Shown here piece after piece: positions 7,919 through 57,097 of a DNA stretch of 64,000 nt; the stretch's first letter is position 1; every line of letters begins with the position of its first letter. Where the stretch lies: the IMG/VR virus record IMGVR_UViG_3300030389_003255, positions 1 to 64,000 of that record, one strand, 5' to 3'. Source of the stretch: a virus. Below the pieces are notes generated by a model. That model did not search any database. It worked only from the letters and a program-made list of their open reading frames with translations, and was not told the DNA's origin. Both the position numbers and the translations under genes were made by a program.

Positions 7919-8037
7919 TGGGATTTGAAATAGTAGTATTATTATTTTTGGCAGGTTTTCTTTATTGGTTAGGAGGCCTACTGATGCCGGAATTTAAACC
8001 AATACAACAAGAACTGATTAAATATGAGGAGGAATAA
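7918..8037 (+). CDS. small membrane protein (39 aa, not in ORF track)
   Basis: MGFEIVVLLFLAGFLYWLGGLLMPEFK...; TAATG coupling to the upstream gene. Confidence 0.55.
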   Translation: MGFEIVVLLFLAGFLYWLGGLLMPEFKPIQQELIKYEEE

Positions 8038-8039
8038 AA

Positions 8040-8264
8040 ATGAAAAGTGAAGATTTAGAAAGAAAAAGTGAAGAACTAAAATCGAAAGCATACGAAGCCG
8101 AACAACTTGAACAACTACTTGAATGGGCTAATAGGGCAGAAGGCTACATTACTGATATTTTAGGTATGATAGAAGAGGTTAATATTCAAGAACCTCATGG
8201 TTGGTTAAGTGAAATTGTGTATAATTTAGTTAGCGAAATAGAATCTAAGTTGGAGGCTTTGTAA
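8040..8264 (+). CDS. hypothetical coiled-coil protein
   Basis: 74 aa, GAGGAGG RBS. Confidence 0.55.
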   Translation: MKSEDLERKSEELKSKAYEAEQLEQLLEWANRAEGYITDILGMIEEVNIQEPHGWLSEIVYNLVSEIESKLEAL

Positions 8265-33388: not shown

Positions 33389-35137
33389 CTATATAGAATT
33401 CCTAAAAGAAGAACGCCTATTTATTTTAGTGCTAACCATTCTTCCTATTTCATCAGCAACCTTTCTCATTTCATCTCTTGATGTATCTTTAGCGTTAATG
33501 GTTATGTTGAAGTTATTTACAGTCGAACCCATCATACTTTTAGTATCTTTATCATTGTAAACTCTAGAACCTGCATTCAATCTAACTAATTCTGCCCCTC
33601 TTTCTCCGACTAATTGCATACCAGTCTTTCTAACTAAACCACCATCAGCATAAGAACCTGCTATATTTATTCCAGAACCTAATTCAATTCCTCCTCCGAT
33701 TTGTTTATTGAAGTTATTAACGGCCTTTGAAAACTTATCTCCAATACCTCCGAAAAAGTCCTTTGTTTTATCAACTGCCGCCCTCACTATGCTCACTCTA
33801 AGAATAGCGTCCTTTAGTCCCTTTAAACCATCTTGTAACAATATACTACCTACTTTGTATACCGCAATACCTATCAAAGCGACTAACCAAACCGGAGCAC
33901 CTAATATGAACGATGTTACTGCAATTAACGCACCTGCGGCTAGAGCAATTTTACCCTTAGTAGATAATTCTGATATTTTCTCTATTATTGTGGCAAATAA
34001 TCCAAATCCTACTCCCGCAACAAAGGTAATTATCGCTCCTCCTAATGTTATTAGTAGGCCTACTGCTAATTGTAATATTCCCCACGATAGCGTTATTATG
34101 CTATTTATGAAATCAGTTAAAGTGCCGTCTCCGAAAAATACATTAAATATTCCTTTTAATCCATTAAAGATATCTTTCATGGCAGGTAAAATTAAACTCA
34201 AACCAAATAAAACTACAGCCTTAGTAGCCGTAAGTGCTTTTTTAATAGTTGGCCCTAATAATTTTAAGATAATATATAATCCTGAAACAAAAGCAAGGAA
34301 GGCTGTAAAAAAGAAAGCCACTCTTCTTCCTATTAATGTAATAGTATTGCCTATTGATTTCATGACATCTGCAAATTTAATATTTTTTAGTTTTTCTAAA
34401 AATTCTTCTCTTTTCTTTTGAAATGGAGTTAGTTGTTTTACAAACCTTCCTGCCCTTTCTCCTTCTCTAAGACCTCTACTAATTCTTCTTCCTGCTATAT
34501 TTTTTCTAGTGTCTAAACCAAAGAATGTTCCTAACTTGCTAGTTCGTATATCCTTTATCATTTTCTTACCTAAGAATCCTCCGCTATAACTTAAGAATTT
34601 GCCGACATTTCCTAATGCTTTCGATAATTTACTGACCTCTTCGGTTGTCTCTGTTATTTCTTTTTTTGCTCTTGGAAATGCAGTTCTTAATGTTCCTCCG
34701 ATAAATTGGAAAGTCAATGCAATCTTATTTAATACAGCGAAAGAACCCGGAACAAAGCCGAAAAAGAACCTTCTAAATTTAGACGCTTCAAAACCTAATA
34801 TTCTAACATCTTCTTCTGTTTTTGTCAAAAACTCGGCAAAGTATTCTAATACTGTTCCGCCTTGTTTCCTATAAGACATTAATGTTCTAGGACTAAACAA
34901 CTCAAATCTTTTGGGGTCTGCTCTTTCCGATAAGTCTTTTAGTGTGTCTTTAAAGATTTGAGTTCTTTTGTTTGCTCTTGTTATGGCTACTCCAAAAGCA
35001 TTTACTTTATTTCCAAATTTGTCTACTTTATCTCCGGCCTCATCAACAAGTGGTGCGGTTTTTTCTAATAGAGATTTAATGTCGTTTAACAACCGCATAG
35101 TAGCGTTATTTGCCATTTGACCTACCATATTAAACAC
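33389..35137 (-). CDS. tail tape measure protein
   Basis: Helical with hydrophobic segments; C-terminal YADGGLV...VGERGAELV...NITIN; follows the tail chaperones. Confidence 0.8.
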   Translation of the reverse strand: MFNMVGQMANNATMRLLNDIKSLLEKTAPLVDEAGDKVDKFGNKVNAFGVAITRANKRTQIFKDTLKDLSERADPKRFELFSPRTLMSYRKQGGTVLEYFAEFLTKTEEDVRILGFEASKFRRFFFGFVPGSFAVLNKIALTFQFIGGTLRTAFPRAKKEITETTEEVSKLSKALGNVGKFLSYSGGFLGKKMIKDIRTSKLGTFFGLDTRKNIAGRRISRGLREGERAGRFVKQLTPFQKKREEFLEKLKNIKFADVMKSIGNTITLIGRRVAFFFTAFLAFVSGLYIILKLLGPTIKKALTATKAVVLFGLSLILPAMKDIFNGLKGIFNVFFGDGTLTDFINSIITLSWGILQLAVGLLITLGGAIITFVAGVGFGLFATIIEKISELSTKGKIALAAGALIAVTSFILGAPVWLVALIGIAVYKVGSILLQDGLKGLKDAILRVSIVRAAVDKTKDFFGGIGDKFSKAVNNFNKQIGGGIELGSGINIAGSYADGGLVRKTGMQLVGERGAELVRLNAGSRVYNDKDTKSMMGSTVNNFNITINAKDTSRDEMRKVADEIGRMVSTKINRRSSFRNSI

Positions 35138-35906: not shown

Positions 35907-37514
35907 TCACCCTTGTAACATCCAATGAGTTCTAACTTTACATTCTTGTAAGTCTCTTGGCATAATAGTAGCACTAACTTCTATTGGGCCTTTATCGTCG
36001 GGCATTGGAAATTCATTAGCACTTAAGAAATAGTTTTTGAACTTGAGAACTATATTTTCTCCAGTTGATTTAGTAAAAATTAATTCAACATGATTACTTC
36101 CAGTGTTTTCTGTATTATTGATTAGTTCTTTGTATAGTTGATTGTCAGTAACATATCCATTGAATTGTATCTCATATGTTCTTTGAGCAGGCAGAGCCTC
36201 TTGTATAGACTTATTGCCGACTCCCAAATATCTTTTATCTGTTAGAGAGTTATTCATGGTAAGAGTAAGACTAGTTACTTTCAAGAAGTCTACATTGAAT
36301 GCTTTTAAACTTCCATCAGAAAAGAAAAATGGTTCTCTAAGTTCGGAGGCTGATGTAAAATTAAAGAAACTAGTCTCATCTGCTACTCCTCTTCTTGCTG
36401 TATATTCTTCATTAGATTCTAGGTTGTGAACATTTCTAGTATTAGCATTAACTGTCATCTTTACTTCTTCATTTTCGTTAGCAGTCATAGTTAGAGTATT
36501 GACCCTACATCCTCTAGCAATCTTAACGAAGTTAAATGACTCATTTGTTTCTACTGTTTCAGTTTCATAGATATCAGTTCCTCCATCATGGTCTACCAAT
36601 TTACTAAATACTTGTTCTAGTGCAAACGATGGTAATAAATCTCCATCTTGTTCTGCAAAGGTATATTCTATTGCATCTTCAATTTTGCCATTTGTTCCAA
36701 CAGTAGGCAAAGTTACAATATGTAGTCCAGAAATAGCATCTTGAGCAGGATTAACATAGGGAGTCATGACCGTTCCAATTGACCTATGAAAAATTGGCCC
36801 AGTTTCTTCTACATCATCATAATTAATGTATATGCCATTCTCACTAGCGGGAACAGCCCTATTAGCAGGATTGCTACCGCTAAGACCTGCTTCAACTAAT
36901 ACATCACTAGCATTTACATTTCCAATATCTACATTAGTGCATTTACCAAAGAAATAATAGAGCCATGTTCCTTGATTAGCGACAAGGTTGATATCTGCCG
37001 CACCTGCGGTTTCTATTCCCTTGTATTGATAAGTAAAGTTTCTTTTGCCACCTAATGAAATATTTGTTTGTTTCATTTCCACTTCCGTTGTTGGAAAGGT
37101 CAAAGATTCTACTATTCCCAACCAAGTATCGGCTAAGAGTGTTTTCTTATCAGTATTAATTTTTGGAGCAGGACAAGGCGCACCATAATTGTCTATTACA
37201 AAATAGTCCCCGCTACTTAGAGTAGCAGATGGAGTAAATGAGATTGTAGTTGCTGTGTTAGCAGTAATCCTATGGGTGGTTTGTAGAGCATTTCCCGAAC
37301 TATATTTTCTAAATAAACAGCCGACATAAAGGTTATTTACTAAAGAAAAATCTGCTCCAAATACCACATCTGCTACTGTGGTAGTAGTAGACCCGTTAGC
37401 AGTAACCGTAGTTACAGTTCCACTAGTTTCTTGAATTGGAAAATAAATATCCAATTCCGGTATTTTCGTTATGCTTGCTCCACTTCCTAAAAATATATCT
37501 GTATTTTTTACCAT
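35907..37514 (-). CDS. major tail tube protein
   Basis: LPSFALEQ, GCRVNTLTMTA, LTLTMNNSL and RTYEIQF motifs; upstream of the chaperones and tape measure. Confidence 0.75.
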   Translation of the reverse strand: MVKNTDIFLGSGASITKIPELDIYFPIQETSGTVTTVTANGSTTTTVADVVFGADFSLVNNLYVGCLFRKYSSGNALQTTHRITANTATTISFTPSATLSSGDYFVIDNYGAPCPAPKINTDKKTLLADTWLGIVESLTFPTTEVEMKQTNISLGGKRNFTYQYKGIETAGAADINLVANQGTWLYYFFGKCTNVDIGNVNASDVLVEAGLSGSNPANRAVPASENGIYINYDDVEETGPIFHRSIGTVMTPYVNPAQDAISGLHIVTLPTVGTNGKIEDAIEYTFAEQDGDLLPSFALEQVFSKLVDHDGGTDIYETETVETNESFNFVKIARGCRVNTLTMTANENEEVKMTVNANTRNVHNLESNEEYTARRGVADETSFFNFTSASELREPFFFSDGSLKAFNVDFLKVTSLTLTMNNSLTDKRYLGVGNKSIQEALPAQRTYEIQFNGYVTDNQLYKELINNTENTGSNHVELIFTKSTGENIVLKFKNYFLSANEFPMPDDKGPIEVSATIMPRDLQECKVRTHWMLQG

Positions 37515-38276: not shown

Positions 38277-39655
38277 TCCAAGAAATAAACTAAATCCTTT
38301 TTTCCATTCAAGGTTTCCATAGCCTCTTTTCTAAGAATATCATATTTTTCCTTAGTTGAAATATTAGCCCCTGTGTCTGTCACCAATATGCTTTGGTCAT
38401 CATGTCTTAATATTTCAGCCGCCACTAATTTAGTAGTTGCTTCGTGGATTTGTGCAGGAACTCTACTATCTCCTGCCTCATAAGTTACTATGATAGAATT
38501 CTTGCTATGGAAAGGATACTCTTGCATGAAAAATATTCTTCCTTCTTCGGCAATAGTCCAAAAATCTCCTAGCCTTCTAACATCCTCTTTGTCAGTAAAT
38601 CGAGATACCGAACATACACTAGGAACATCTTGATTTACTGAAACAAAATTAAGTGTATTTGTTCCAGCAGTTATTCCTGAGCCACTGTCTAAGACAACGG
38701 TATTAGTATCAGTAATAGAACTAATTGTTTTACTACCTGTTATACCTGCTCCACTTACCGTCATACCAACAGCAAGTTTTGAAGAATCTTCAACTGTAAG
38801 ATTTGCAGAAGATAAAGTAGTAGTGCATGACTGTTGAGTAGTTATCTCAACAACACAATCCGAGCCGTCATCTCCTGCTAATAGAGAGGATATCAAGATA
38901 TTACTTCCACTGCTTTTATCTTTTGAAGCGTAAAAGAAATCAGAAATAGATAATTGATTAGTTGTATCTAATAGTGCTTTGTGGTTTCTAGCCTTTGTAA
39001 ATGATTGAGTTTTACTGGGCTTTTCTTCATTAATTAAAGAAATAATTTCATTAACAGTAGTCTTTATTCCAAACGCATTATTAAATTCACTATCTAATAG
39101 TCTTGGTGAAGAGGTCGTAACTATTTTATTTGAGGATTCTAAATTAAAAGAATAAGTGCTATTTGGTGTTTTAAGAGTTATTATTTTTATGTCCGTATGA
39201 TTCTCTAACAGTCTTATTTGTGCTTGAGCCGATGCTAATTCTTCATAATGGCTACCTTGCCAAACTTGTAGAGATACAATCTTTCTAACTTTTAATGTAG
39301 GCAACTGAATAAAACCAACATACCCACCGTAGTAAGTATTCATTGGTAGGTTTTTAAATTGAAAATCATGAAACTCATCTCTAGTAATAATAGGCCGATA
39401 AGAACGCTTAGTTGTTTCATCAACAGTTCCTTCTATTCTTTTTATTATTTTACCTACTTGCGCCCTACTAGGATAGGTTGTATCGGTAAAATGTGCTATC
39501 TGTAACATATCTGCTACAGAGGCAAAGTCGGTATAAAATCCAACACCTTTATCATAAGCCCCTGTAAAAAAACCCAATGCTACAGTGTATGTAGCAACAC
39601 CGTTTAGTTTCTCATCAAAAGAATAGTCGCTTGGATATCCAGTTGTTCCCATCAA
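38273..39655 (-). CDS. head-tail adaptor-like protein with inserted domains
   Basis: N-terminal YTDFASVADML...IEGTVDETTKRSY and C-terminal IIVTYEAG...VPAQIHEATTKLVAA. Confidence 0.6.
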   Translation of the reverse strand: MMGTTGYPSDYSFDEKLNGVATYTVALGFFTGAYDKGVGFYTDFASVADMLQIAHFTDTTYPSRAQVGKIIKRIEGTVDETTKRSYRPIITRDEFHDFQFKNLPMNTYYGGYVGFIQLPTLKVRKIVSLQVWQGSHYEELASAQAQIRLLENHTDIKIITLKTPNSTYSFNLESSNKIVTTSSPRLLDSEFNNAFGIKTTVNEIISLINEEKPSKTQSFTKARNHKALLDTTNQLSISDFFYASKDKSSGSNILISSLLAGDDGSDCVVEITTQQSCTTTLSSANLTVEDSSKLAVGMTVSGAGITGSKTISSITDTNTVVLDSGSGITAGTNTLNFVSVNQDVPSVCSVSRFTDKEDVRRLGDFWTIAEEGRIFFMQEYPFHSKNSIIVTYEAGDSRVPAQIHEATTKLVAAEILRHDDQSILVTDTGANISTKEKYDILRKEAMETLNGKKDLVYFLD

Positions 39656-42003
39656 TATCCCTCTATTGTTTCTCTAATATCTAGTATTCTATTACTTAGG
39701 TCATCTAAGTATTCTCTCATGGCTTTATTTTGCCCTCTTCCTCTTAGTGGGCTTAGATTAAAAGAGGCGTATTTTTTAAGATAGACGCTATAAAATACTG
39801 CAACATCTTCTTCATTATCTTCCATTATTGGCTTACCGTCTTTATCTTTTTTATCGCCTTCTACTTGCATTAAATCTTCAACAGTAAATGCTGTTGCTTC
39901 ATATTTATCTTTACCGAACTCACTACCTTCTATTATCTTAGAACCCTCAACAACCGCAGTTTCCGAAACTAAAGGAAGAAGAATGTATATTTGAGCCGCT
40001 TTCTTATTAGTTTCATAGAGTTTAATCCATCTCTTAGTTTTCATTTTTTTCTCTACGCTAATATCATCTAAGTCTTGTTTATTTAATTCATCTCTACTAA
40101 GCCTTCTTCTAGAATCTGCTCCGCCTTCTGCTGGAGTTATCTTAGGAGTTGGAACATTAGCGCCCGTAGGCCTAATTACATCTTTATCACTATAAGAAAT
40201 TCCCAATACATCTAATAGTTTTTGGGAGGCAGTTTGGGGAGAACCAAGAATACTAGGTAATTTTACATTTGCTTTACCTGTTAGAATATAGTAATAAAGG
40301 TCTGCCCTTTGTTCTTCATTAAGACCCAAATCAGCATATTTACCGATATCGGTTTGTTTAACCTTATCTTTTCTATAAAACACATAATCGGAAAATGCTT
40401 CTCCATACTCTTCTTGCACTACTCTAAAGTCACCTTGTTCTATTTGTCTTGCTTCTGCTTCTGTAATGGGTTCGTCTCTTCTATCTATATATGCATACTT
40501 TAGTCTTTCTTGGCCTTGAAAATCTGAATCAAACAGAGCCTTATCTTTGAATTTACTAGTTCCTTCCTTTTTTATCATTTCAAATTTTTCATCGAAGAAA
40601 CTATGAATTATCATTCTTATCTTATTGTTACCAAACCCAAACTTATCGTATGCTTTTTCTGCCTTTTTGTAAACAGGATTGTCACTAAAAATCAACAAAT
40701 ATTTATTTCCATCTACTTCTATTTCAGTTGTAGCGGCTCTCAATTCATTATATTCAGCAGTTATTTTTTGTCTCTCTTCTTTTAATTTATTGTAGATTTT
40801 TTGCCTAGCATTTTTATTTTCTTCACTATCTCCCTTTAGTCTATCGGGTATTCTGTATTCTTTCATAGGTATCAATGGATATTCTTCTTCCGCAGTAACA
40901 TCAAAGTTTGGATTAATAGCAAACGCTTTTGGTATTCTATACTTTAAGGCAGTGAATTTACTATATTTATCTTTTATTTTAGCATCATCATCCGGTAGTG
41001 TTTCTTTTACTCTCTGTGTTAGTGTTTTTGTTTTCTTTTGTTCTCTAACAAATGAGGCCTCTACCATTAATTGATAGAGCGTTCCGTCTTGAACCATAGT
41101 GTTAAAATATTCGTCACCAATTGTCCTATCGAACCACTGTTCTAATTTTAAATTAAGTTCATCTATGAATTTGTAATCAAACTGTAGACCATCTTTAATT
41201 TCACCTTCTTCTATATATTTATTCATTGATGAAAATTTAATTGCGTTTTTAATCCCCTCTTTATCTATTGCACTATCAATTAGAATTTTTCCTCTCTTTG
41301 GTAGGAAGGTAACTTCTGCACCTGTATATCTAACAATTATGTTTTGTGCCTTTGCAATTAATTCCTCCATACCGTCATCTGTTGGAAAAGTCATAACAGA
41401 GTGTGCATTCTTAAACCCTCTATTGTTGCTTTTTGAAAAACTTAATTTGTTTTCGCCTGTTATAGTTTTAGCAGTTTTAAATCTTATTTCTGACTCTATT
41501 CCTAACGATAAAGAATCACTCTCAAATTCTTCATCTGACATATCTGCTTGTGATATTACCGCAACAATATCCTTTCTAATTTGTTCTCCTACATTAGCAA
41601 TATCGCTGACCACTGTTCCACTTAACTGAGCAACTAATTTTTCATCAAACTCAGGATTATCTTCTTCTATGTTTTTAAGACTCGCCTCTGCCAGCATTTT
41701 TTCATCTTCTTCTTTTCTTTTTTCAGGCCGTCTCTTGACAAAACTACTATATGCTTGTCTGTTAGATTTTAAGTATAAAGTAAGAGGACTCTCTAATAAT
41801 TCTTTAAAAACACCTTTTAGTTGTTCTGTTAATTGTTTAGGGTCATTATCTCTTGCCTCTATTAAATTTATTGACTGCTCGATGAGTTCAACGAAACCCT
41901 CGTCTTTACTAGTTCCTAAAATGTATTTTTCCATCTGTTCACTAATAAAATTTGATGCGGCAGGAAATCTTCTAGTTACTCCATCATAATCAAAAGCAAC
42001 CAT
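39652..42003 (-). CDS. hypothetical protein (783 aa, charged)
   Basis: Long ORF in the late operon; no motif recognised. Confidence 0.7.
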   Translation of the reverse strand: MVAFDYDGVTRRFPAASNFISEQMEKYILGTSKDEGFVELIEQSINLIEARDNDPKQLTEQLKGVFKELLESPLTLYLKSNRQAYSSFVKRRPEKRKEEDEKMLAEASLKNIEEDNPEFDEKLVAQLSGTVVSDIANVGEQIRKDIVAVISQADMSDEEFESDSLSLGIESEIRFKTAKTITGENKLSFSKSNNRGFKNAHSVMTFPTDDGMEELIAKAQNIIVRYTGAEVTFLPKRGKILIDSAIDKEGIKNAIKFSSMNKYIEEGEIKDGLQFDYKFIDELNLKLEQWFDRTIGDEYFNTMVQDGTLYQLMVEASFVREQKKTKTLTQRVKETLPDDDAKIKDKYSKFTALKYRIPKAFAINPNFDVTAEEEYPLIPMKEYRIPDRLKGDSEENKNARQKIYNKLKEERQKITAEYNELRAATTEIEVDGNKYLLIFSDNPVYKKAEKAYDKFGFGNNKIRMIIHSFFDEKFEMIKKEGTSKFKDKALFDSDFQGQERLKYAYIDRRDEPITEAEARQIEQGDFRVVQEEYGEAFSDYVFYRKDKVKQTDIGKYADLGLNEEQRADLYYYILTGKANVKLPSILGSPQTASQKLLDVLGISYSDKDVIRPTGANVPTPKITPAEGGADSRRRLSRDELNKQDLDDISVEKKMKTKRWIKLYETNKKAAQIYILLPLVSETAVVEGSKIIEGSEFGKDKYEATAFTVEDLMQVEGDKKDKDGKPIMEDNEEDVAVFYSVYLKKYASFNLSPLRGRGQNKAMREYLDDLSNRILDIRETIEGY

Positions 42004-42012
42004 TTAACCAAC

Positions 42013-42666
42013 TCACATTAACCATTTAGCCCAAGCCGCACCTTTCTGTATTGCACTACCTAAACCTAAACCGCTTTGTGGTGGTTCATAACTCATTTGT
42101 CCTTGAGCATCTATCCAATATGGTCTACCATATCCATCTGTTCCGCTAGGTGGAATAGGATATCCACTACCATTATTCATAGCACCCTGCATTTGATTAT
42201 ATTGTTGCATATTGCCAGTTAATCCTGCTATTGCCGCAGTAGCAGTAGGTTGAGCCATTTGTCCTCCACCACTGAATCCTTGAGACTCTAAGTATTGTTG
42301 CTTTGCTAATTTTCTTTGATTTACTACTTCTGTGTTGATAGCGGAATTAAGGAGTTTTTGAATATCCAAGTCTATATTTTCTTGAGTAATTTTCTCATAT
42401 TCTCTAAGAGAATCCGCATTCACTATAATATTGCTACCATTAGAAGTAAGTTTTAGTTTTGATAGCATTTGGCTAACTACTCTTTCTATGACATCTTCCA
42501 TCATTTGTTCTAAAGCCGTCAAAAACATTTCTCCATGATATTGGAAAAATTCTTCTACATGATTATCTTGTAGAGAAAGTAAGTTGTTCATTGACTTGAA
42601 GTTGTTTTGCTGACCTTGTTGAACAGCCCCTAAAACCGTTCCATTACTTGTTCCTAGTATTCCCAT
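42013..42666 (-). CDS. hypothetical protein with Q/G/N-rich region and C-terminal amphipathic helix
   Basis: Helical core, Q/G/Y/P-rich tail, ends GLGLGSAIQKGAAWAKWLM. Confidence 0.65.
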   Translation of the reverse strand: MGILGTSNGTVLGAVQQGQQNNFKSMNNLLSLQDNHVEEFFQYHGEMFLTALEQMMEDVIERVVSQMLSKLKLTSNGSNIIVNADSLREYEKITQENIDLDIQKLLNSAINTEVVNQRKLAKQQYLESQGFSGGGQMAQPTATAAIAGLTGNMQQYNQMQGAMNNGSGYPIPPSGTDGYGRPYWIDAQGQMSYEPPQSGLGLGSAIQKGAAWAKWLM

Positions 42667-42668
42667 AT

Positions 42669-43346
42669 CTATTCCTCCACGACTTCTTCAATAATTTCTT
42701 CTTTTACTTTTTTAATATCATCAACTTTAACTTCTTTATTTATCATTAAATAATTCAATCTATCTGTTAGTATATTTATTTCTCCAATTATCTCTACGGC
42801 TTCATTGGTCGCTGACCTGTTATCTCCTAAAGTTGGTGGCTTTATTAAATAACCGTTTGCTGTTAGTGCTACAATATCATCCTTTGTTAGATTAGATACT
42901 GGGCCGCTTTTTAAAATCTTAGGCATTTTAGGCTTAAATGCCTTAAAATCTAAGCCATGCTTATCTGCTAATATTTGCTGTTGTAGCATTTCTAATTGCA
43001 TATACATTGAAGCATGTTTAGGGCAGTAAGTTCCCATTAATGGACGACCCTTTGTTACCTTATCTAGAGGAATAGGTGGCCTAAGATAATCTCCTGCTTC
43101 CCAAATATGATGCATTCCACATACAACACATCTATCCTTAAGATTAAATTTCTTTCCATATCTTAGAAATAGTAATTTCTTAGGTTCTGCTTTTAGGACA
43201 GCAGTTAATTCTGCTAATTGCTTTTTAGGTTTGATAGCCATAAAGTGATATTCTGTTACTGCCCCACTTGCTCTAGCCTGTTTAATAGGCGATAGGCCTA
43301 AATTCATATTATTCGTTTGTGCTAATATTTGCTGGTTTTGATACAT
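42669..43346 (-). CDS. putative Zn-binding protein
   Basis: CVVCGMHH...YCPKH. Confidence 0.6.
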   Translation of the reverse strand: MYQNQQILAQTNNMNLGLSPIKQARASGAVTEYHFMAIKPKKQLAELTAVLKAEPKKLLFLRYGKKFNLKDRCVVCGMHHIWEAGDYLRPPIPLDKVTKGRPLMGTYCPKHASMYMQLEMLQQQILADKHGLDFKAFKPKMPKILKSGPVSNLTKDDIVALTANGYLIKPPTLGDNRSATNEAVEIIGEINILTDRLNYLMINKEVKVDDIKKVKEEIIEEVVEE

Positions 43347-43356
43347 CTTTTATTCC

Positions 43357-44019
43357 TCAATAATCCTTTATCATAGTAGTTATTCCTTTATACACCATTT
43401 CGGGGTCTGATTTTGCTGATACAATATATTTGAAACAAGGTATTCCCTTATCATTAAGTTGCCTCATACCATAAGAGAACGGCTCGAATATCTCATGTTT
43501 ATCTATCGGCTTTTCACTTTTATATTTATCTCCCCAAATGTCATATTTATTAGCCCAAATAGCAACTGCCATTGGATAATCAGAATCTTTTTTCTTTCTT
43601 CCGGTAGGCCAACGACTAGCAGTAATAGTATCTACTAGAAATTTCCAAGCAACTTGATGGTCTAAATTAGAAGGATTATCTAAATGCCTATGGTCTACCA
43701 TAAATATAACATATTTTACTCTACGAGTTTGCATATCTTTTACCCATTCTTTCCAGTAGATGGCTTCTCCTCCAATATCAGCACTCTTTATTGTATGCGA
43801 ATCTCCGTCTAATTTTATCGTTTTTCTAGAAGCCCTATGCAACCCCACCGTTCTTTCATTTATCTGAGGAACTTCTCCTCTAGTTCTTAATTGATGACTT
43901 AAGGTTGTTTTACCAACCATAGTAGCGCCATAAACACCAAAGTTTATTGCATGAATTTTTTTGTAAAAACCTATTATGGCTTCACCAACTAATATGGCAA
44001 AGCCTGTCATTATTGACAT
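43357..44019 (-). CDS. Arf/Sar1-like small GTPase
   Basis: G1 GATMVGKTT, G2 RTVG, G3 DIGGE, VIFMVD, G4 ANKYD, G5 SAK and an N-terminal hydrophobic helix. Confidence 0.85.
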   Translation of the reverse strand: MSIMTGFAILVGEAIIGFYKKIHAINFGVYGATMVGKTTLSHQLRTRGEVPQINERTVGLHRASRKTIKLDGDSHTIKSADIGGEAIYWKEWVKDMQTRRVKYVIFMVDHRHLDNPSNLDHQVAWKFLVDTITASRWPTGRKKKDSDYPMAVAIWANKYDIWGDKYKSEKPIDKHEIFEPFSYGMRQLNDKGIPCFKYIVSAKSDPEMVYKGITTMIKDY

Positions 44020-44020
44020 A

Positions 44021-44239
44021 TTAATGACTCCAAATATCTTTAACCCTCTCTATAATCCAACCCATTATATTGATGTCAAAGACTCCCATAATATTACCAA
44101 TTAAGAACATAGACAAAGTAGAAAAGCCTCCCCAAAACCATGCTCTCATTTTCAAAAAGAAAATGTCTGCTGAGTGCGCTCTAGATTGATTATAGGCGTA
44201 GTCAGAATCAGAAAAACCCATTATATCTCCGAGAACCAT
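44021..44239 (-). CDS. small membrane protein
   Basis: Hydrophobic segment WFWGGFSTLSMFLIGNIMGVF. Confidence 0.65.
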   Translation of the reverse strand: MVLGDIMGFSDSDYAYNQSRAHSADIFFLKMRAWFWGGFSTLSMFLIGNIMGVFDINIMGWIIERVKDIWSH

Positions 44240-44250
44240 TTAGCCACCCC

Positions 44251-44640
44251 TCATTGAAGGACTGCTAAAAACTCATTACTAACGGTATTTTCATCGTTTT
44301 CATTCTGATTCGCTGAATAGGTAAAACTAGTATTATATTGCTTTGCGCTTTCAGCCATCTTTCTTCTCTGTTGGTCATCTCTAGCCTTTCTTTCCCAAAA
44401 CGCAGAAATCTTTCTATCTAGTAGCCAAATTTCTATCTTGTCATTTAGGGCTAAATCAAACAAAGCCTTCATTACCATAATTGCTCCGATTGTTCCTAGT
44501 CCAAATAATACGGAATGTGCTAAAGCACCATAGGGAAAACCAGTTCCTATTTTAGCATAAGCAAAGACATTAGCCCCACTTACTGCTCCAACAAAAAGTA
44601 TAGTCATTACTAATCTAGTATCTTGATTTAAAACTGCCAT
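44251..44640 (-). CDS. two-TM membrane protein with soluble C-terminal tail
   Basis: Two hydrophobic helices (LVMTILFVGAVSGANVFAYA; ALAHSVLFGLGTIGAIMVM), then a charged helix. Confidence 0.7.
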   Translation of the reverse strand: MAVLNQDTRLVMTILFVGAVSGANVFAYAKIGTGFPYGALAHSVLFGLGTIGAIMVMKALFDLALNDKIEIWLLDRKISAFWERKARDDQQRRKMAESAKQYNTSFTYSANQNENDENTVSNEFLAVLQ

Positions 44641-44987: not shown

Positions 44988-45332
44988 CTACTCCTTTTTT
45001 GGAGTTTTTGCCTTAGTAGTTTTAGGTTTTGTAGACTTAGGTTTGGTATTTCTAGTCTTTTTTACAGTCTTTGGTATTAGCAAATCCACTAAATCTTGAT
45101 GGGTCTTTATCGCTTGTTTGGTCTCAAAAGCGGCCACTTTTAGTTTAGCCTCTTCTAAGTCAAGTATGGCTTTTTCATCTTCTTTAGTAAATGTAAACAT
45201 AAAGTCTGGGTGTCCCAACATAGATATTGCAGACCTCAAAGGAAACTCAACGGGTGTATCTTTTGTTATCAATACACCCGCTAAGTTCTTTTTTTGTATT
45301 TCTGCTTTTTCTGTTAGTATAACAGTAGGCAA
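44988..45332 (-). CDS. hypothetical protein with Lys/Thr/Pro-rich tail
   Basis: 114 aa, downstream of capsid genes. Confidence 0.55.
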   Translation of the reverse strand: MPTVILTEKAEIQKKNLAGVLITKDTPVEFPLRSAISMLGHPDFMFTFTKEDEKAILDLEEAKLKVAAFETKQAIKTHQDLVDLLIPKTVKKTRNTKPKSTKPKTTKAKTPKKE

Positions 45333-45341
45333 TAAATCACC

Positions 45342-45917
45342 TCAAAGGTTTCCAAAGACCTTTAGTTTTACAGTTCCCAAATCACCGGATTGTAGAGAAG
45401 CCGACAACAAAGCGGCTGAACCTGTGGTATATGCATAAAGGTAAAAGAAAGTCTTATCCGCAGAGATATCTCCTATAATGTAGTGGCAGTCGTGGTCAGA
45501 TTGACCCACTAATTCAACAGAAGTTATAGTGTCTAATCCAAAACTAGATGCTAAGATTTTTTCACCTGCATGAGTAAACTTTTCATTTCCTCCACCAGTA
45601 TCGGCCGTAACTGTTTGAGCAGTAGTTAAACCAGTAGCGGTTAGCGCAGTTATTTTAATAACATCGTCATTGTTATTTGCGGCTGAACCTTCTACAACAA
45701 CATGGTCGCCAACAACAAATCCATCATCCAAATAACTACCCGCATCTCTTGTGTAAGTTTGTAAAGCGGCAGTAATAGTTTGACTTGCCGCAGTAGCGGT
45801 TGTTCCTGTTCTGTAAGAAGAAATGGCTACACTACCCAATGCTATGTATTCATCACCAACGGCTCTAGGTTTAGTAAATCCCTTATGGTCGGGTAAAAGT
45901 GTTACAGTATTAGTCAC
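45342..45917 (-). CDS. putative capsid decoration/minor head protein
   Basis: Immediately after the major capsid gene; T/A/G-rich beta protein. Confidence 0.5.
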   Translation of the reverse strand: MTNTVTLLPDHKGFTKPRAVGDEYIALGSVAISSYRTGTTATAASQTITAALQTYTRDAGSYLDDGFVVGDHVVVEGSAANNNDDVIKITALTATGLTTAQTVTADTGGGNEKFTHAGEKILASSFGLDTITSVELVGQSDHDCHYIIGDISADKTFFYLYAYTTGSAALLSASLQSGDLGTVKLKVFGNL

Positions 45918-45927
45918 TTAAACCACC

Positions 45928-47310
45928 TCAAAGTAGATTTGTAATCTTACCCTGTCCTCTAAAGTATGAACAACCAACCTCACCAATAGTTCGGTAAAGT
46001 GCTTGGTTTCCTAGAGTTCCAACACCGAATGGGTTTCCGTTACTAATACCATCTTCAAAGTATTGAGTTGGTTTCATAACTGATAGCCACAAATGGTCAG
46101 TATCTAGAATCAACATATCAGAAAGTCCAGTAGATAGAGAGTGGTGCTTTGTTGATGGCATAGCCGCAACAGGAATTAGTGGGATATCGTAATAAGTAGA
46201 AACTCTAAATCCGACTTCTTGACCCTTTACACCACGAACACCATTTACGGTTGGCACAATTTCTTTACCATCCATGAATCTTTCTTGTGCTTGTAGCAAA
46301 TCACTCAATGTTTGTAGAGTATCATATCCAGTTAGTATAACCTTTGGAGAACCACCGTTTTGTCGAATTTCTCTTAGAGTTTGGTTAATCAAACTTAGAG
46401 TCAAAGACCTTTGGCCACTTGCTGAGTAAGTTCCATCATTTACAACTGCGTTCATGAAAGAAGAAGTTGTAGCGGCTCTATCACTGTTACCGAATAGAGT
46501 AGAAACTTCTGCTACACCATTTGTAGTGTCTGTATCATCGTATGTTCCGTTCTTAATCAAATCATTTGCTTTCATGTTCTGTAGTTCTTCGTTACTAGAA
46601 ATAACCTTTAGTAATGAAGTATAGTTTCTTTCAATTGTAGCAATTGTTGTTGTTACTCCGCCATCGAAGTCATAAACTTCTAGAGGCATAACTAGCATTT
46701 GGTTCTGAACTTCTGCATGGTGCTTACCCATATCTTCACGCATTTGCGCTCTAATGTCGCCAATACCATCATCAATTTGTGCAAGTTCCATAGCAAGTTC
46801 GCTGAACTCAAATTGATGTGCAATAATCTTTGGGCTTGTAAATAGTGTAGAATACTTTGGTGCAATAGAAAACAACCCATCAGCGTTAGTTCCTAGTTTA
46901 GCATTTTCAGGAACACCACCAATCAAATCGGGTCTTAGTGTGCTTGCTCCAATAAAGGCATCAGAATTAGCCCCTGTTCTTGCGCTTACATCTAGTGAAT
47001 TTCCACTACCACCAGCAGGTCTTTCTACCAATACTCTCCAACCACTTGAAACATATGGTCTCTTTGAAATAACTGAAAGTGCATTACATTCTCTGTTTAG
47101 CATTGACCAAACCTTTTGACCAAATACTCGGTTATATAAAGCGGCTCTATCTCCTATTGATGAAGTTCCGCTTCCTACTCCTAGTGTGGTATCATGGCCA
47201 CTGTGTAGTGCTTGAACTGCACCACTTTGTTTTAGCAATTGACCGCTAATGCCCGATAGTCCGTATGTCTGTCTTTCTAAATCTGCTATTGTGTTAATAT
47301 ATCCTGTCAT
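45928..47310 (-). CDS. major capsid protein (HK97 fold)
   Basis: 460 aa directly after the protease/scaffold; GGVPEN, PKIIAHQFEFSE, GGSPKVILTG, YYDIPLIP and ILDTDHL. Confidence 0.85.
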   Translation of the reverse strand: MTGYINTIADLERQTYGLSGISGQLLKQSGAVQALHSGHDTTLGVGSGTSSIGDRAALYNRVFGQKVWSMLNRECNALSVISKRPYVSSGWRVLVERPAGGSGNSLDVSARTGANSDAFIGASTLRPDLIGGVPENAKLGTNADGLFSIAPKYSTLFTSPKIIAHQFEFSELAMELAQIDDGIGDIRAQMREDMGKHHAEVQNQMLVMPLEVYDFDGGVTTTIATIERNYTSLLKVISSNEELQNMKANDLIKNGTYDDTDTTNGVAEVSTLFGNSDRAATTSSFMNAVVNDGTYSASGQRSLTLSLINQTLREIRQNGGSPKVILTGYDTLQTLSDLLQAQERFMDGKEIVPTVNGVRGVKGQEVGFRVSTYYDIPLIPVAAMPSTKHHSLSTGLSDMLILDTDHLWLSVMKPTQYFEDGISNGNPFGVGTLGNQALYRTIGEVGCSYFRGQGKITNLL

Positions 47311-47311
47311 C

Positions 47312-48607
47312 TTAATAACCTCCTACCATTTTGTGAATCTCTGACCAATCCATTTCAGCCAAATCTTCCATACTTGGGAGTTCTTCTTCTGCCGCCTTTT
47401 GTGCCTTTAGAATTGTTTCTTTTTCAGCAGTCAAAGACTTTCTTAATTGAGTAAACTCATCTTTTAGAGATGCTATTTCGGCTTGAGCATCATATTGTGA
47501 CTTTGCCAAAATATTTTCTCGATTTGCTCTTTCTGCGTTAAATCTTGCATTAAATTGCTTTTCTAAATTACTTAGAGCAATTTCTTCTAGTTGCTCTTGT
47601 CGATAAGACTCATATGCTTTCTCGATATTTAGGTTAGAAAGGTTTAGTGTATCTAATTCATCATTGTTAAATGCTTTAACAACAGGAAGTCCACTTGGCT
47701 TAGGATTGCCATTATCAATAACAATTCTATCAGCAGGTTCTCCAATTTCGACACCTGCTCCGTCCAATGTAGCAACATAGGCTTTATCTGCCATTTTGTC
47801 ACCATATGCACCTCTTTCCATGTCATCAGTAGGGACATCTTGCATTCTTTCCATGTTTTTCATCCTTTCCATGTCTTTCATCCTTTCCATGTCCTTCATA
47901 GATTCCTTTTCTTCATCCATGTTTTCCATCATATTCTCATCTTCCATAGACTCTTTCATGGATTCTTTATCCTCCATCATTTCAGTGTCCATCATTTCGG
48001 CTTCTTCTTTTCGTAGCGTATTGACTTGCTCCATTAGAGTGTCAAGTTCCGCCAATGCTTTTTCTAACTTGCTCATATTTTTCACCTGTTTATCTTGCTT
48101 TAAAATATCAAATCTTGCTTCGGGATTTATTCCTTTTTCACAAATTGTTACCTCATGCAATTCCAGTTTGCTTATTTCATTGTAATCTCCTAACTCCGGA
48201 TGACTTTTCTTTACTTTTTGTAATGCCTGTCCTCCTATGCTAAATGACCTCAATGAACCTTTTCTTACGCCTCTTCCTATTTCTTTGGCTTTTTCTATAT
48301 CATCTCTTAACTTAATTACTACGAAGAAACCAACATCATCTACTTCTGTTTTCCACAATCTCCCCGTTTTATCTCGATATGATTTTACTACTTCTCCAAC
48401 TTGAACATTTGAGTGATTTGTCATTACATTTCTAAACTTTGGATTTTGCATATACTTCTCTACTGCTTCTTCTAAAGCCTTTAGTGTAATTAAATCGTTT
48501 TGTTTATCCACGATTTCTATGCTTGCATATCCTCCAATCATCAAGTCTTGATTACTTTTTAAGATGCTAAAGTCGTTGGCTCTATTACTTATCACCGCAG
48601 AACTCAT
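47312..48607 (-). CDS. prohead protease fused to scaffolding domain
   Basis: GGYASIEIVDKQND, MTNH (His), SFSIGG (Ser) and EVTICEKGINPEA; acidic/Met-rich and coiled-coil C-terminal half. Confidence 0.88.
   Translation of the reverse strand: MSSAVISNRANDFSILKSNQDLMIGGYASIEIVDKQNDLITLKALEEAVEKYMQNPKFRNVMTNHSNVQVGEVVKSYRDKTGRLWKTEVDDVGFFVVIKLRDDIEKAKEIGRGVRKGSLRSFSIGGQALQKVKKSHPELGDYNEISKLELHEVTICEKGINPEARFDILKQDKQVKNMSKLEKALAELDTLMEQVNTLRKEEAEMMDTEMMEDKESMKESMEDENMMENMDEEKESMKDMERMKDMERMKNMERMQDVPTDDMERGAYGDKMADKAYVATLDGAGVEIGEPADRIVIDNGNPKPSGLPVVKAFNNDELDTLNLSNLNIEKAYESYRQEQLEEIALSNLEKQFNARFNAERANRENILAKSQYDAQAEIASLKDEFTQLRKSLTAEKETILKAQKAAEEELPSMEDLAEMDWSEIHKMVGGY
47843..47899 (-). repeat. 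3 x 18 bp tandem repeat encoding (MK[D/N]MER) in the scaffold linker
   Basis: + strand units cattctttccatgttttt / catcctttccatgtcttt / catcctttccatgtcctt. Confidence 0.85.
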
Positions 48608-48664: not shown

Positions 48665-51154
48665 TTATTTTGGTATTTTCACAGAATTAAATTTATCTTC
48701 GTAAATATCCCAAATACCCTCATCTCCGGCTTTATCGGCAGGTTTTTGTTTATATCCAGTCCATGCTAGCCACATCTTTTTATCTTCAACAGGTAAATAT
48801 CTAATATGTAACTTAGTCTCAAATTTGTTACCTTCTAAGAAATATTCGTGATATCCATTTCTTTGTATTCCTAATTTTATCTTACCGTAATCAATGGTTT
48901 TTTTGTTTTGAACATTTTCTGAAACCTCAGCAGGGTATTTTCCCGCCGCACCAAATAAATCAAACAGTTCTTTTTCATCGTCAATCTCAATAGTCCAATG
49001 TAAATTTTTATCTTTTAATCTAATTGAAAATTGTATATTATTATCTTCTCTAAGTGATATTTTGAATTCACCCTCTCTATATTTTTCAGGAGTTTCATAT
49101 TTTTTAATTTCGTCTGCACCAAATTTAAATTCGGGGTCTGCTTTTATTTTATTATTCTGTCCTTCTAATATCGGTTCTCGCTGAACAGCCCAATCTCTTA
49201 GTTTGTTTTGTTTAGCATCTAGTATATCTTGATACAAACTCCTATGATTAGTTATTAAGAATTCATGTAGTTGTCGAGTTGTCTGCTCTCCCTTCTTAGT
49301 TAGGAATTGATGAATAGCCGCAGTAAGTTCTCCCTGTTTTGTTTTCATTATCTCTATTGCCTTGCTTTTCCACATATCTAAATCTGCTAAAGCATTCTTT
49401 GACATTAAATTGTTTTCTTCAAAGCCATACAGGGTAAAACCATTCATATCGTATTTGAGAATAGCAGTAGTTTCTCCATGAACATAATCTGTTACCTTGA
49501 TTCCTTTTTCCAATGCTGAAACATCATAGTTCAAAGACTTCTTTGTGTCTTTAGCAAGCATGGCTAAAGTAACTAATTTATCCGGATATTCTACTTCCGG
49601 AACTTCGATTACCTTAGCAGAAAATAAAGAGTAGCCGTTAGCCGTTTTCTTAACTTCATCTACCTTTACTCTAATAATATCCCCAACATCAACCGCTATC
49701 TTAGTGTTTAGTGCTTTACCTACATTTAGATATCTTGTATCATCTATTTCAACAGTATTAGGTATATCATCTAGTATTGGGCCAACTCCTACACTATAAG
49801 AATGCAAGCCACTTTTTGTCTTAGTTTTGCTAAGAACCACTACATCTAAATCTACAAACTTCTTCCATTTGACCCACTTAGGATTCTTTTTAGTTCCCAC
49901 ATAATATATTGAAGTAATGTCTTTTATCATGACTCCTTCCGCAGTAGGAATATCCATTATGTCTTTAGAGTATTCTGCTACCTCCTTAATTGAATCAGCA
50001 AAGCGAGTATCTTTCTTTGAGGGGAAAAGCAGAACATCAGAAGAGTGCTGTGAATAATTATTAAACAAAGTCCTAATTCTACTATCTAATTCTTCTTCTA
50101 ATAACATTTGAGAATCGTGTCTCATAATATCAAAGACATGGGCTTTTAGAGTGGCTTCAGGATATTTATTTTTAAACACATGAGCAATTGTATCAGCCCG
50201 ATGCAGTGCTTCTTTACCATCAAATAAAATCAATTCTGCATCTAAAATACACTCTCCGAAGTGTTTTGCTTTTAATTCTTTAACTATGTCTTTACACTTT
50301 TCAGTAATATCCTTTTCATTATATGAGTATATCTTTACATTACCGTCTATCTTATGCAGTTGTATTCTCATACCGTCATACTTTTCTTGAACAATATATT
50401 CTCCACTAAATCCTTTTAGTTCGTTCATATCATTTATCTCAAATATTCTATACATTGGTTTGTTGGGAATAATAAAGTCGCTTTGGGCTTTTTCTGCTTT
50501 CTTCATATCAATATCTAAAAGTTCATCCCAATCTTCTTCACTGTGTTGTGAAAAGTAAATTAACTCTAACATATCCATAGCGGCTTTAACTTTGGATTTG
50601 ACTTTTTTAGAATCTTTATCATCACCATAGTTTTCTATTATGTATAGTGCTACATCATCCGGTTCTAAATCTAGTCCTGCTAGTCCATCGGTTAAAGTAT
50701 CCTCTTCCATATCTTTTATTTGTAGGGTTTCTTTTCCTAGCGCATGAGTGTTATCTCTGATAGCATAATGAACAAACTTAACCATAGATTCAGGATTATC
50801 TAGTAACTCTTCTAAGACACCCTCTCCAAATCTTTTGGCAAATGGGTCTATAACGACATCCGATTTATATCTAATAAGTTTAATATCTTCATAAAGTTCT
50901 CTTGCTTGAGGAGATGTGGGGTCACTAACATCTTGATGTTCTAATAGATTTCTTTCTATAAAGTTCTTTAATTCTCTGCCTGCTATATCTAAGTCATCAT
51001 AAGATTCTCTAACTTGCTCTACAGCCTTTCTCCATTTGTGACCGTATTCTTTAGGGTCACTATTAGCCGATAAGAAAGCAACTCTAGATATCTCAAATAA
51101 TTTTACTAACTCTACCGAAGGACGCTTATCCTTTTCTAAAGAGCCGAGTTTCAA
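48665..51154 (-). CDS. second ATP-dependent DNA ligase with N-terminal helical extension and LigD phosphoesterase-like C-terminal domain
   Basis: QEKYDGMR, ILDAEL, VFDIM, EGVMIK and WVKWK; C-terminal DYGKIKLG...EYFLEGNKF...WLAW. Confidence 0.85.
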   Translation of the reverse strand: MKLGSLEKDKRPSVELVKLFEISRVAFLSANSDPKEYGHKWRKAVEQVRESYDDLDIAGRELKNFIERNLLEHQDVSDPTSPQARELYEDIKLIRYKSDVVIDPFAKRFGEGVLEELLDNPESMVKFVHYAIRDNTHALGKETLQIKDMEEDTLTDGLAGLDLEPDDVALYIIENYGDDKDSKKVKSKVKAAMDMLELIYFSQHSEEDWDELLDIDMKKAEKAQSDFIIPNKPMYRIFEINDMNELKGFSGEYIVQEKYDGMRIQLHKIDGNVKIYSYNEKDITEKCKDIVKELKAKHFGECILDAELILFDGKEALHRADTIAHVFKNKYPEATLKAHVFDIMRHDSQMLLEEELDSRIRTLFNNYSQHSSDVLLFPSKKDTRFADSIKEVAEYSKDIMDIPTAEGVMIKDITSIYYVGTKKNPKWVKWKKFVDLDVVVLSKTKTKSGLHSYSVGVGPILDDIPNTVEIDDTRYLNVGKALNTKIAVDVGDIIRVKVDEVKKTANGYSLFSAKVIEVPEVEYPDKLVTLAMLAKDTKKSLNYDVSALEKGIKVTDYVHGETTAILKYDMNGFTLYGFEENNLMSKNALADLDMWKSKAIEIMKTKQGELTAAIHQFLTKKGEQTTRQLHEFLITNHRSLYQDILDAKQNKLRDWAVQREPILEGQNNKIKADPEFKFGADEIKKYETPEKYREGEFKISLREDNNIQFSIRLKDKNLHWTIEIDDEKELFDLFGAAGKYPAEVSENVQNKKTIDYGKIKLGIQRNGYHEYFLEGNKFETKLHIRYLPVEDKKMWLAWTGYKQKPADKAGDEGIWDIYEDKFNSVKIPK

Positions 51155-54077: not shown

Positions 54078-54302
54078 TTAGAATGGAATATTTTCTTTTT
54101 TTCCTCTCTGTTTAGGTGGAAGAGTTATCACATCGGGGATATCCGCACTACTAGGCCTTGGTTTTGGTGTAGTGTCTTTTGGCAGTCCTACACTAAAATC
54201 TCTATTTTTAGTAGTCTTTCTACTTTCGTTGTTATTAGCGGCTCTCACCTGTGCCAACTCTTTTCTTAGTCTTATTTCTTTTTGTCTATTATCTTCGGTC
54301 AT
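54078..54302 (-). CDS. hypothetical protein
   Basis: ATGA-coupled to the portal gene. Confidence 0.55.
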   Translation of the reverse strand: MTEDNRQKEIRLRKELAQVRAANNNESRKTTKNRDFSVGLPKDTTPKPRPSSADIPDVITLPPKQRGKKENIPF

Positions 54303-56893: not shown

Positions 56894-57097
56894 TCACTTT
56901 GGTTTATGAGTGTAAATATCTCCATCTTTATGCATGAATATCTTACCGTCTTTTTCTAATTCGGCTAAGGCTCGTTTTATTTCCGCTTCTTCACCAAATT
57001 GTTTTAGATTCTTCATACCCAATGCCCCGCCTTCTTTTTTAATTTCAGCAAGAATTTTTGCTTTTATGTCTTGTTTTATTATGTCCTTCCATGTCAT
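56894..57097 (-). CDS. small winged-helix-like protein with WxxILK tag
   Basis: MTWKDIIK...IKRALAELEKDGKIFMH. Confidence 0.6.
   Translation of the reverse strand: MTWKDIIKQDIKAKILAEIKKEGGALGMKNLKQFGEEAEIKRALAELEKDGKIFMHKDGDIYTHKPK

Follow-up and report, generated by a model that had tools for sequence, protein, structure and literature searches.

SR-beta has an Arf-related G domain that is anchored by an N-terminal hydrophobic helix, and its GTP state sets partner binding rather than membrane binding; archaea are not known to have SR-beta. Virus-borne Arf-like switches are rare except in the eukaryotic giant viruses. In Euryarchaeota, the ArvABC (OapABC) system, in which an Arf-like GTPase has a Zn-ribbon partner, drives membrane vesiculation (PMC10927574). 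ArvA has an N-terminal helix, and the Zn-ribbon protein of the operon was proposed to be a GAP (PMC10927574). The egress of head-tailed archaeal viruses has been stated to be uncharacterised, and the criteria given for holins are a small size, one or more TM helices and a C-terminus that is charged and hydrophilic (PMC10791045). Here, we describe a five-gene viral cassette that is a candidate for viral action on, or exit through, the host membrane. We read it, at somewhat less than an even chance, as a membrane module that is autonomous, is encoded by the virus and has an Arf-like GTP switch at its centre, most likely for virion release.

The cassette lies at 42013-44640 of the window, i.e. 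the stretch of 64,000 nucleotides that was analysed, and its source is a magrovirus, a tailed virus whose hosts are the Marine Group II archaea that abound in the ocean. An ORF check of the window found five minus-strand genes (here g1 to g5) separated by intergenic gaps of 1-11 nt, and thus all ORFs of the tightly packed group reported in a preliminary description are present at their coordinates. From g1 to g5, their products are a 2-TM and a 1-TM membrane protein, a small GTPase that is complete, a Cys/His protein and a protein rich in Gln and Gly (Table 1). The two genes for small integral membrane proteins are immediately upstream of the GTPase gene, with start and stop codons almost in contact; the g2 stop codon is one base away from the GTPase start codon. 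The cassette is inside a long co-directional block that carries virion genes, with which it shares the strand, and it is the sole cluster of small membrane proteins within the 92.8-kb genome.

Table 1. Features of the five-gene cassette, in window positions
Feature	Position	Strand	Basis
g1, 129-aa membrane protein	44251..44640	-	hydropathy
g2, 72-aa single-pass membrane protein	44021..44239	-	hydropathy
g3, 220-aa Arf-like small GTPase	43357..44019	-	G1-G5 motifs, fold
GTPase residues 1-22, hydrophobic N-terminal helix	43954..44019	-	model helix 2-22, hydropathy
GTPase G1/P-loop, G31-T39	43903..43929	-	alignment, 102 sequences
GTPase G3, D81-IGG-E85	43765..43779	-	alignment
GTPase polybasic loop, G140-RKKK144	43588..43602	-	virus-specific insert, both clades examined
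GTPase G4, N157-KYD160, then invariant W162	43540..43551	-	alignment
g4, 225-aa soluble Cys/His protein, directly downstream of GTPase	42669..43346	-	jackhmmer, hhalign
g4 residues 73-111, putative metal site	43014..43130	-	invariant residues across lineages
g5, 217-aa Gln/Gly-rich protein	42013..42666	-	hhalign, jackhmmer

The product of g3 has the G1-G5 motifs and the six-stranded G-domain fold that define the Ras superfamily, with G1 as GATMVGKTT, R56-T57 in switch I, D81-IGG-E85 as G3 together with W89/W92, G4 within WANKYD, and S201-AK203 as G5. Among 102 distinct sequences from four lineages, identity is 95% or higher at G31, G36, K37, T38, T39 and L40. The nearest known proteins appear to be the small GTPases of the Arf family, which include eukaryotic Arf1, Arf6, Arl1, Arl3, Arl6, Arl8 and Sar1 and Asgard ArfR (e.g. 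PDB 8OUN, 8OUM and 8OUK; bioRxiv 10.1101/2024.02.28.582541). The best solved profile match is Asgard ArfR 8OUN, followed by Arl3, and in the structure search the top 34 rows are all Arf/Arl, tied with the first Rab and with Rab/Ras within one Z unit. The protein scores below the curated cut-off of the Pfam Arf model (PF00025), with no Arf match at E<=1, and in NCBIfam only a sub-threshold small_GTP match was found; distant relatives are above the Pfam Arf cut-off (P0164, 57 bits; P0182, 36.5; P0161, 27). The Pfam model is not specific because it also has matches in 14/14 control prokaryotes. Motifs, profile and fold agree with the small GTPase with Arf-like features of the preliminary description, and by family profile and modelled fold the viral GTPase is a very divergent, Arf-like protein.

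The viral GTPase differs from the Arf family in several respects. Firstly, its G5 motif is SAK, resembling Ras and Rab. Secondly, it has two virus-specific inserts, i.e. a polybasic loop between helix 3 and strand 5, where each of the two clades examined has 4-6 Lys/Arg per 10 residues, and an H-x-I-F-x-P-F segment in which His175 is invariant; fold topology would place the polybasic loop on the N-terminus side of the G domain. Thirdly, Glu85 of the window GTPase occupies the position of the Arf catalytic Gln. The motif D[ILV]GGE is present in 72/72 clade-1 loci, while this position across the four lineages is Q in 44, E in 43, H in 8 and D in 7 of the 102 sequences, with Gln in most P0134-like sequences. 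Fourthly, the N-terminal helix is hydrophobic, while the Arf helix is amphipathic. This helix, MSIMTGFAILVGEAIIGFYKKI, has Gly at 6, 12 and 17 and is directly followed by KK. In clade 1, its mean hydrophobicity is 0.72 with a moment of 0.19, and KD values are 1.66-2.15 over 18-19 residues; for comparison, Arf1 residues 2-17 give 0.15 and 0.27. Thus, the Arf/Sar1 mechanism invoked in the preliminary description, in which GTP switches an amphipathic helix, does not fit a helix that is plainly hydrophobic and TM-like, and it is also mismatched by the Glu that clade 1 has where Arf has the catalytic Gln. Instead, the helix is a putative constitutive hydrophobic anchor with N-out/C-in orientation. 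In clade 2, the helix is shorter and less hydrophobic (0.45-0.67) and could, therefore, be monotopic, which counts against the module reading, as does the Glu of clade 1 at the catalytic position.

With its Arf-like G domain and putative N-terminal hydrophobic anchor, the viral GTPase would have an SR-beta-like architecture. The Pfam SRPRB score of the viral GTPase is 12 bits, against a cut-off of 25, and no SR-alpha-like partner was found in the Pfam and NCBIfam searches. It is quite improbable, in our estimate, that the cassette has another membrane role, such as SR-beta-like recruitment of the host translation or secretion machinery, energy sensing or interference with cell division. This reading would account for the architecture and the sub-threshold SRPRB matches, and the strong constraint on the cassette would suggest a conserved host partner; however, no SRX, longin or SepF-like partner is detectable, and the reading is wholly speculative.

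Directly downstream of the GTPase gene, g4 encodes a protein with the motif C73-x2-C76 ... C108-x2-H111 (consensus C-x2-C ... G-R-x4-G-T-Y-C-P-x-H). C73, G77, W82, G100, T106, Y107, C108, P109 and H111 are invariant in all lineages, R101 is near-invariant (at least 90%), and C76 is replaced by Asp in other lineages; the pattern marks a putative metal site, possibly for zinc. Using jackhmmer, g4 was located in 153/160 loci, and between clades hhalign aligns it with a probability of 92.9% (E 3.8e-7). The AF2 model has a pLDDT of 68. No match in fold or sequence was found in the PDB, and no GAP, longin or roadblock fold is recognisable, which counts against the module reading. The N-terminal half of g5 is helical, its middle is rich in Gln, Gly, Asn and Met, and its C-terminal helix is conserved and Gly-rich. 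The mean identity of g5 is 0.82. Its counterparts were detected in all lineages with jackhmmer, and the clades align at E 8.8e-5 across 85 columns in hhalign. The preliminary description of g5 as a Q/G-rich protein ending in an amphipathic helix is borne out for the composition (22% Gln+Gly), but the conserved terminal GLGLGSAIQKGAAWAKWLM is only weakly amphipathic (muH 0.27). Neither g4 nor g5 had matches in Pfam or leads in the ESM Atlas. A predicted complex of GTPase residues 22-220 and g4 residues 28-225 with GTP and Mg had a score of 0.00, which is uninformative in either direction.

By description, the archaeal vesiculation operon ArvABC is the nearest cellular analogue of the cassette. 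In the archaeal operon, the GTPase gene is followed by those of its partners, and the viral order of GTPase and Cys/His protein is parallel. By contrast, the viral Cys/His protein, which occupies the partner position, is different from the ArvC Zn-ribbon, and the viral unit has integral membrane proteins as well as a protein rich in Gln and Gly in addition. This parallel, together with an ArvA that is itself Arf-like with an N-terminal helix and a Zn-ribbon partner, raises the alternative that the cassette causes ArvA-like vesiculation or remodelling of the host surface without lysis, by a switch brought to a host that possibly lacks one. The possible ends would be decoy vesicles, receptor removal (superinfection exclusion) or vesicle-borne virions. 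Among the rows listed from the ArvA survey, at least 51 are Thermoplasmatota and none is Poseidoniales (PMC10927574), and one Asgard genome carries Arf GTPases in a region that resembles a mobile element (PMC11529989); both speak for this alternative. Against it, the models of ArvB (Pfam OapB, PF09846) and the ArvC Zn-ribbon (Pfam OapC, PF09845) matched nothing at E<=1 when the window's genome was searched in six frames, and the viral GTPase helix is not amphipathic. Overall, we consider vesiculation without lysis rather unlikely.

The two membrane proteins bring the cassette close to holin cassettes, with which it shares small 1-2 TM proteins, a charged C-terminal tail on g1 and a location within a late-gene block; the viral unit differs in that it adds a GTPase and two soluble partners, and there is no sequence relation. 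By hydropathy, g1 has hydrophobic segments at residues 8-29 and 38-65 followed by a Lys/Arg/Glu/Gln-rich helical tail, and its predicted topology is N-in/C-in. As a 129-aa protein that has two TM helices and a tail rich in Lys, Arg and Glu, g1 has what is expected of a holin in architecture only, and holin-like architecture is a weak criterion. The protein occurs in 78 clade-1 loci (mean pairwise identity 0.72); it has no sequence match to its positional counterpart in other lineages, although the layout is identical. g2 has one hydrophobic segment, at about residues 42-63, and occurs in 79 clade-1 loci. At its position, other lineages have a 73-87-aa ORF with one predicted TM in most of the loci listed and none in some P0135-like loci. 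No enzyme family was detected in the cassette or in the genes directly beside it, and so there is no adjacent endolysin or other lytic enzyme; the host of the virus has no murein.

About 230 viral loci carry the cassette and there are 390 GTPase homologues, a recurrence far above chance. The co-conservation of the five genes, on which the preliminary description made its proposal depend, holds: TM, TM, GTPase, g4 and g5 follow one another in this order in four deeply divergent magrovirus lineages (window-type, P0134-, P0147- and P0135-like), in which the GTPase, Cys/His protein and Gln/Gly protein remain linked and small membrane proteins flank them. The mean pairwise identity of the GTPase is 0.87 versus 0.73 for the capsid protein. 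In the window, the cassette comes after the major capsid gene (45928-47310), and the tail tube gene (35907-37514) is on its other side; thus, the location between capsid and neck genes given earlier holds on the capsid side, while a neck gene was not identified. Nor is this location conserved: in three complete genomes mapped from another lineage (G001, G002 and G003), the cassette is 11-13 kb upstream of the portal gene. Its position differs between lineages while the gene order is kept, i.e. it moves as a unit, and in the other lineages, too, it is on the structural-gene strand.

T4 gp40 aids the portal in starting head assembly at the inner membrane, and the cassette could similarly be a membrane-bound assembly platform for head, tail or packaging intermediates, which it would tether or nucleate at the host membrane, with GTP gating the hand-over. 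Its place in the virion block, here in the capsid-tail tube interval and elsewhere on the strand of the structural genes, as well as its very strong conservation, would fit such a platform. We nevertheless regard it as unlikely, given that the placement relative to the structural genes varies, that the cassette is missing from relatives whose portal, protease and capsid core are the same and that no cassette protein has a structural-family match. Podovirus and P22 ejection proteins are a precedent for packaged membrane-channel delivery, and ejection proteins are often small, membrane-active and encoded among structural genes; the cassette proteins could thus be carried in the virion, with the packaged membrane proteins and the GTPase forming or controlling a channel in the next host during DNA delivery. 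The location upstream of the portal gene in other lineages is in line with this idea, and in locus L157 a neighbouring ORF (4288-4713) shares 57% identity over 53 residues with a small window ORF at 56894-57097, which is within a stretch marked earlier for N-terminally tagged proteins. However, the N-terminal tag W-x-x-[IV]-[LI]-K is present in 0/5 cassette proteins, a GTP switch requires cytosolic GTP and integral 2-TM proteins are difficult to package, making entry proteins very unlikely.

Because the five genes are co-conserved and under strong constraint, their position shifts and portal-sharing haloviruses lack them, the cassette is better understood as an autonomous accessory membrane module than as a core assembly part. 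In this model, the GTPase would be permanently in the cytoplasmic membrane, N-out and with the G domain inside, in an SR-beta-like arrangement. As a consequence of this permanent seat, GTP would set the partners held and not membrane residence. In the GTP state, the GTPase would collect g4, possibly its GAP or effector, and g5 at membrane patches set by g1 and g2, and at a late stage of infection the assembled complex would deform the host membrane or open it, most likely freeing virions. Egress is a plausible candidate role. The more specific proposal that the cassette is the magrovirus egress machine, with GTP-gated membrane-breaching or vesicle-type release on an Arf-like switch in a host lineage possibly without ArvA, is possible but doubtful. 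The cassette cannot be a general egress device of archaeal tailed viruses because halovirus relatives lyse their hosts without it. If the egress reading is true, head-tailed archaeal viruses would have their first identified egress system, and Arf-type membrane remodelling would have an instance in a virus of prokaryotes. As a defined five-gene unit, the cassette is amenable to cloning and to tests in a model archaeon.

Outside the four lineages, HVTV-1 and other Druskaviridae have the portal in common with the virus (28% identity), but the GTPase, g4 and g5 are absent from them. For P0149, P0161, P0164, P0182 and P0184, no locus was found in the viral and metagenome contigs scanned, and P0164 had no relatives in a word search. 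No match to the cassette or GTPase was found in the 'phages' collection by blastn and tblastn, PADLOC gave no matches and PHROGs none for the cassette, the flanks of the cassette in another lineage (L119) had no family matches, and the searchable literature contains no description of the five-gene unit. In contigs of a marine metatranscriptome, there are 88-98% identical pieces that cover the genes for the protease, the capsid protein, p191 and p114 (45.1-48.0 kb). No piece covers the cassette in the same contigs, which, as assembled contigs only, are uninformative on expression; a second RNA run is probably DNA. The viral GTPase broadens the known Arf-type range past Asgard archaea and the ArvA family, and it bears on the origin and spread of GTPase-driven membrane remodelling, possibly via mobile elements. 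Among GTDB genomes, there is one match, on a 12-kb contig binned as Maricaulis that we read as a misbinned virus.

The five genes of the cassette (g1 to g5, of which g3 encodes the GTPase) make up a real, strongly constrained and undescribed accessory membrane module, in which an Arf-like GTPase is combined with a putative anchor resembling that of SR-beta, the signal recognition particle receptor beta subunit. The five ORFs of the preliminary description are real, and intergenic gaps are 1 to 11 bases. The g1 protein has a charged tail after two hydrophobic helices, g2 a single hydrophobic helix, and g5 (22% Gln+Gly) a conserved Gly-rich helix at its C-terminal end. The window covers 64 kb of the 92,771-base virus record. 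Genome-wide, hydrophobic segments occur otherwise in the tape measure protein, in a few large proteins and in three small ORFs that stand alone (Table), the latter being the sole small membrane-protein candidates beyond the cassette. Thus, nowhere else in this 92.8-kb genome do small membrane proteins form a cluster.

The GTPase has the motifs GATMVGKTT (G1), a switch-I Arg-Thr, DIGGE (G3), Trp89/Trp92, NKYD followed by Trp162 (G4) and SAK (G5). Searched against Pfam as a single sequence, it matched MMR_HSR1, Roc, Ras and SRPRB, all sub-threshold, and did not match Arf. A profile of 16 family members had the Asgard Arf-related GTPase 8OUN as its best match (1.2e-9), then Arl3, and then Rab33B and KRas at ~1e-7; three distant relatives passed the Pfam Arf cut-off. 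Because of these matches, we describe the GTPase as Arf-like and not as a proven Arf-family member. Two defining Arf features, the amphipathic helix and the catalytic Gln, are lacking here. The N-terminal helix is plainly hydrophobic: its mean hydrophobicity is 0.72, its moment is low at 0.19, and Lys-Lys follows it, a signature that suggests a membrane anchor like that of SR-beta and not an amphipathic helix of the switchable kind. The position of the catalytic Gln is occupied by Glu in all 72 of 72 loci of clade 1, the window-type lineage, and by Gln, Glu, His or Asp across lineages. A conserved polybasic loop lies in an insert preceding strand 5; from the fold topology, it would share a face with the N-terminus, consistent with that face being close to the membrane.

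Public metagenomes contain 390 homologues of this GTPase, several JGI copies of which carry the automatic name "GTPase SAR1 family protein". The homologues include gp088 of Poseidoniales virus YSH_150918 (76% identity, annotated as hypothetical protein), and the window virus is, therefore, a magrovirus. The sole match among 185,579 species genomes, NZMJ01000024.1 (12.2 kb, "MAG: Maricaulis sp."), is a short contig in an alphaproteobacterial MAG with a magrovirus GTPase at 84% identity, and is probably a misbinned viral contig.

To compare cassettes, about 230 viral loci were fetched and ORFs called on the GTPase strand. They include four GTPase lineages (window-type, P0134-like, P0147-like and P0135-like; 31-36% identity to the window protein), and all four keep the order membrane protein (130-280 aa), 73-87-aa ORF (with a single predicted TM helix in most of the loci listed), GTPase, g4 homologue and Gln/Gly-rich protein (21-28% Gln+Gly). 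Two of the four have an extra 80-aa two-TM protein at the end of this order. Between lineages, homology is supported for the GTPase (hhalign, 99.9% probability), g4 (hhalign, 92.9%, E 3.8e-7) and g5 (E 8.8e-5; jackhmmer converges on all lineages), while the membrane proteins share the layout with no detectable sequence similarity. Given this shared order and homology, the genes are co-conserved, and the preliminary description withstands its own refuting condition of absent co-conservation. In 17 of 72 clade-1 loci, one ORF lies between the GTPase and g4 genes, and in the clade-1 relative L005 the GTPase gene has an additional ORF on each side (178 aa, 6459-6995, and 191 aa, 7660-8235); thus, insertions are tolerated and the order is not lost.

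The g4 protein contains C73-x2-C76 and C108-x2-H111. Cys73, Cys108 and His111 are invariant, the latter two within the motif G-T-Y-C-P-x-H, Arg101 is near-invariant, and Cys76 is replaced by Asp in other lineages. Its predicted structure, of middling confidence, matched no known fold. Our guess that g4 might be a GAP or an effector is drawn from a parallel with ArfGAP zinc fingers and ArvC.

Table. Location of the cassette, virion genes and isolated small ORFs (window positions unless marked G000, the whole virus record)
Feature	Coordinates	Position	Strand
Portal	54299-55933		minus
ATP-dependent ligase	48665-51154		minus
Prohead protease	47312-48607		minus
Major capsid protein	45928-47310		minus
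Three small genes		between major capsid gene and cassette	minus
Cassette genes g1-g5	42013-44640	after three small genes, before 783-aa protein gene	minus
783-aa protein	39652-42003	directly after g5	minus
460-aa protein		after 783-aa protein gene	minus
Two small genes		between 460-aa protein and tail tube genes	minus
Tail tube	35907-37514		minus
Tape measure	33389-35137		minus
Isolated small ORF with hydrophobic segment	21622-21777		plus
Isolated small ORF with hydrophobic segment	G000 92128-92403	outside window	minus
Isolated small ORF with hydrophobic segment	G000 92436-92687	outside window	minus

The placement between capsid and neck genes holds here in that the cassette follows the capsid gene and precedes tail genes. 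However, in three nearly complete or complete P0134-like genomes (capsid protein 42-47% and portal 48-50% identical to the window), it shares the strand of the portal gene and is found 11-13 kb upstream of it, not between capsid and tail genes; its flanking genes in that lineage have no similarity to the window and no family matches. By tblastn, the GTPase was not found in the cultured relatives with a shared portal (HVTV-1, HCTV-1, HCTV-5 and HCTV-16; 28% portal identity), and profile searches of the HVTV-1 portal-to-tail region found no GTPase, g4 or g5. For these reasons, the cassette falls outside the morphogenetic core that these viruses share and is a unit of its own. Within clade 1, no protein of the region is better conserved than the GTPase (mean pairwise identity 0.87), which is followed by g5 (0.82), protease (0.77), g2 (0.75), capsid protein (0.73), g1 (0.72) and g4 (0.66).

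Close relatives encode versions of the 783-aa protein with lengths between 377 and 861 aa, and in the P0135-like lineage a 760-846-aa protein without detectable similarity to it follows the Gln/Gly-rich protein. Residues 266-436 of the tape measure protein include four hydrophobic segments, a feature shared with some siphovirus tape measures. In a marine metatranscriptome run, contigs from related strains match window 45124-47999, with the genes for p114, p191, the capsid protein and the protease, at 88-98% identity; no contig of the same run lies over the cassette, and contigs are no measure of absence.

A candidate role in egress is the leading reading of the cassette, and egress of head-tailed archaeal viruses has been called uncharacterised (PMC10791045); vesiculation, assembly at the membrane and entry are less likely alternatives. 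The closest cellular analogue is ArvA-ArvB-ArvC (OapABC) of Euryarchaea and DPANN, which drives the formation of extracellular vesicles and pairs an Arf-like GTPase with a SepF-like protein and a Zn-ribbon protein (PMC10927574). Because the ArvB and ArvC Pfam models have no match in this virus genome and ArvA was compared by its published description, this is an analogy and not membership; the available part of the ArvA survey list has no Poseidoniales entry. The magrovirus papers PMC5434244, PMC10160649, PMC11706807, PMC8651126 and PMC10768690 do not mention a GTPase, and full-text literature searches found no description of the cassette. In an Asgard genome, Arf GTPases lie inside a mobile-element-like region (PMC11529989).
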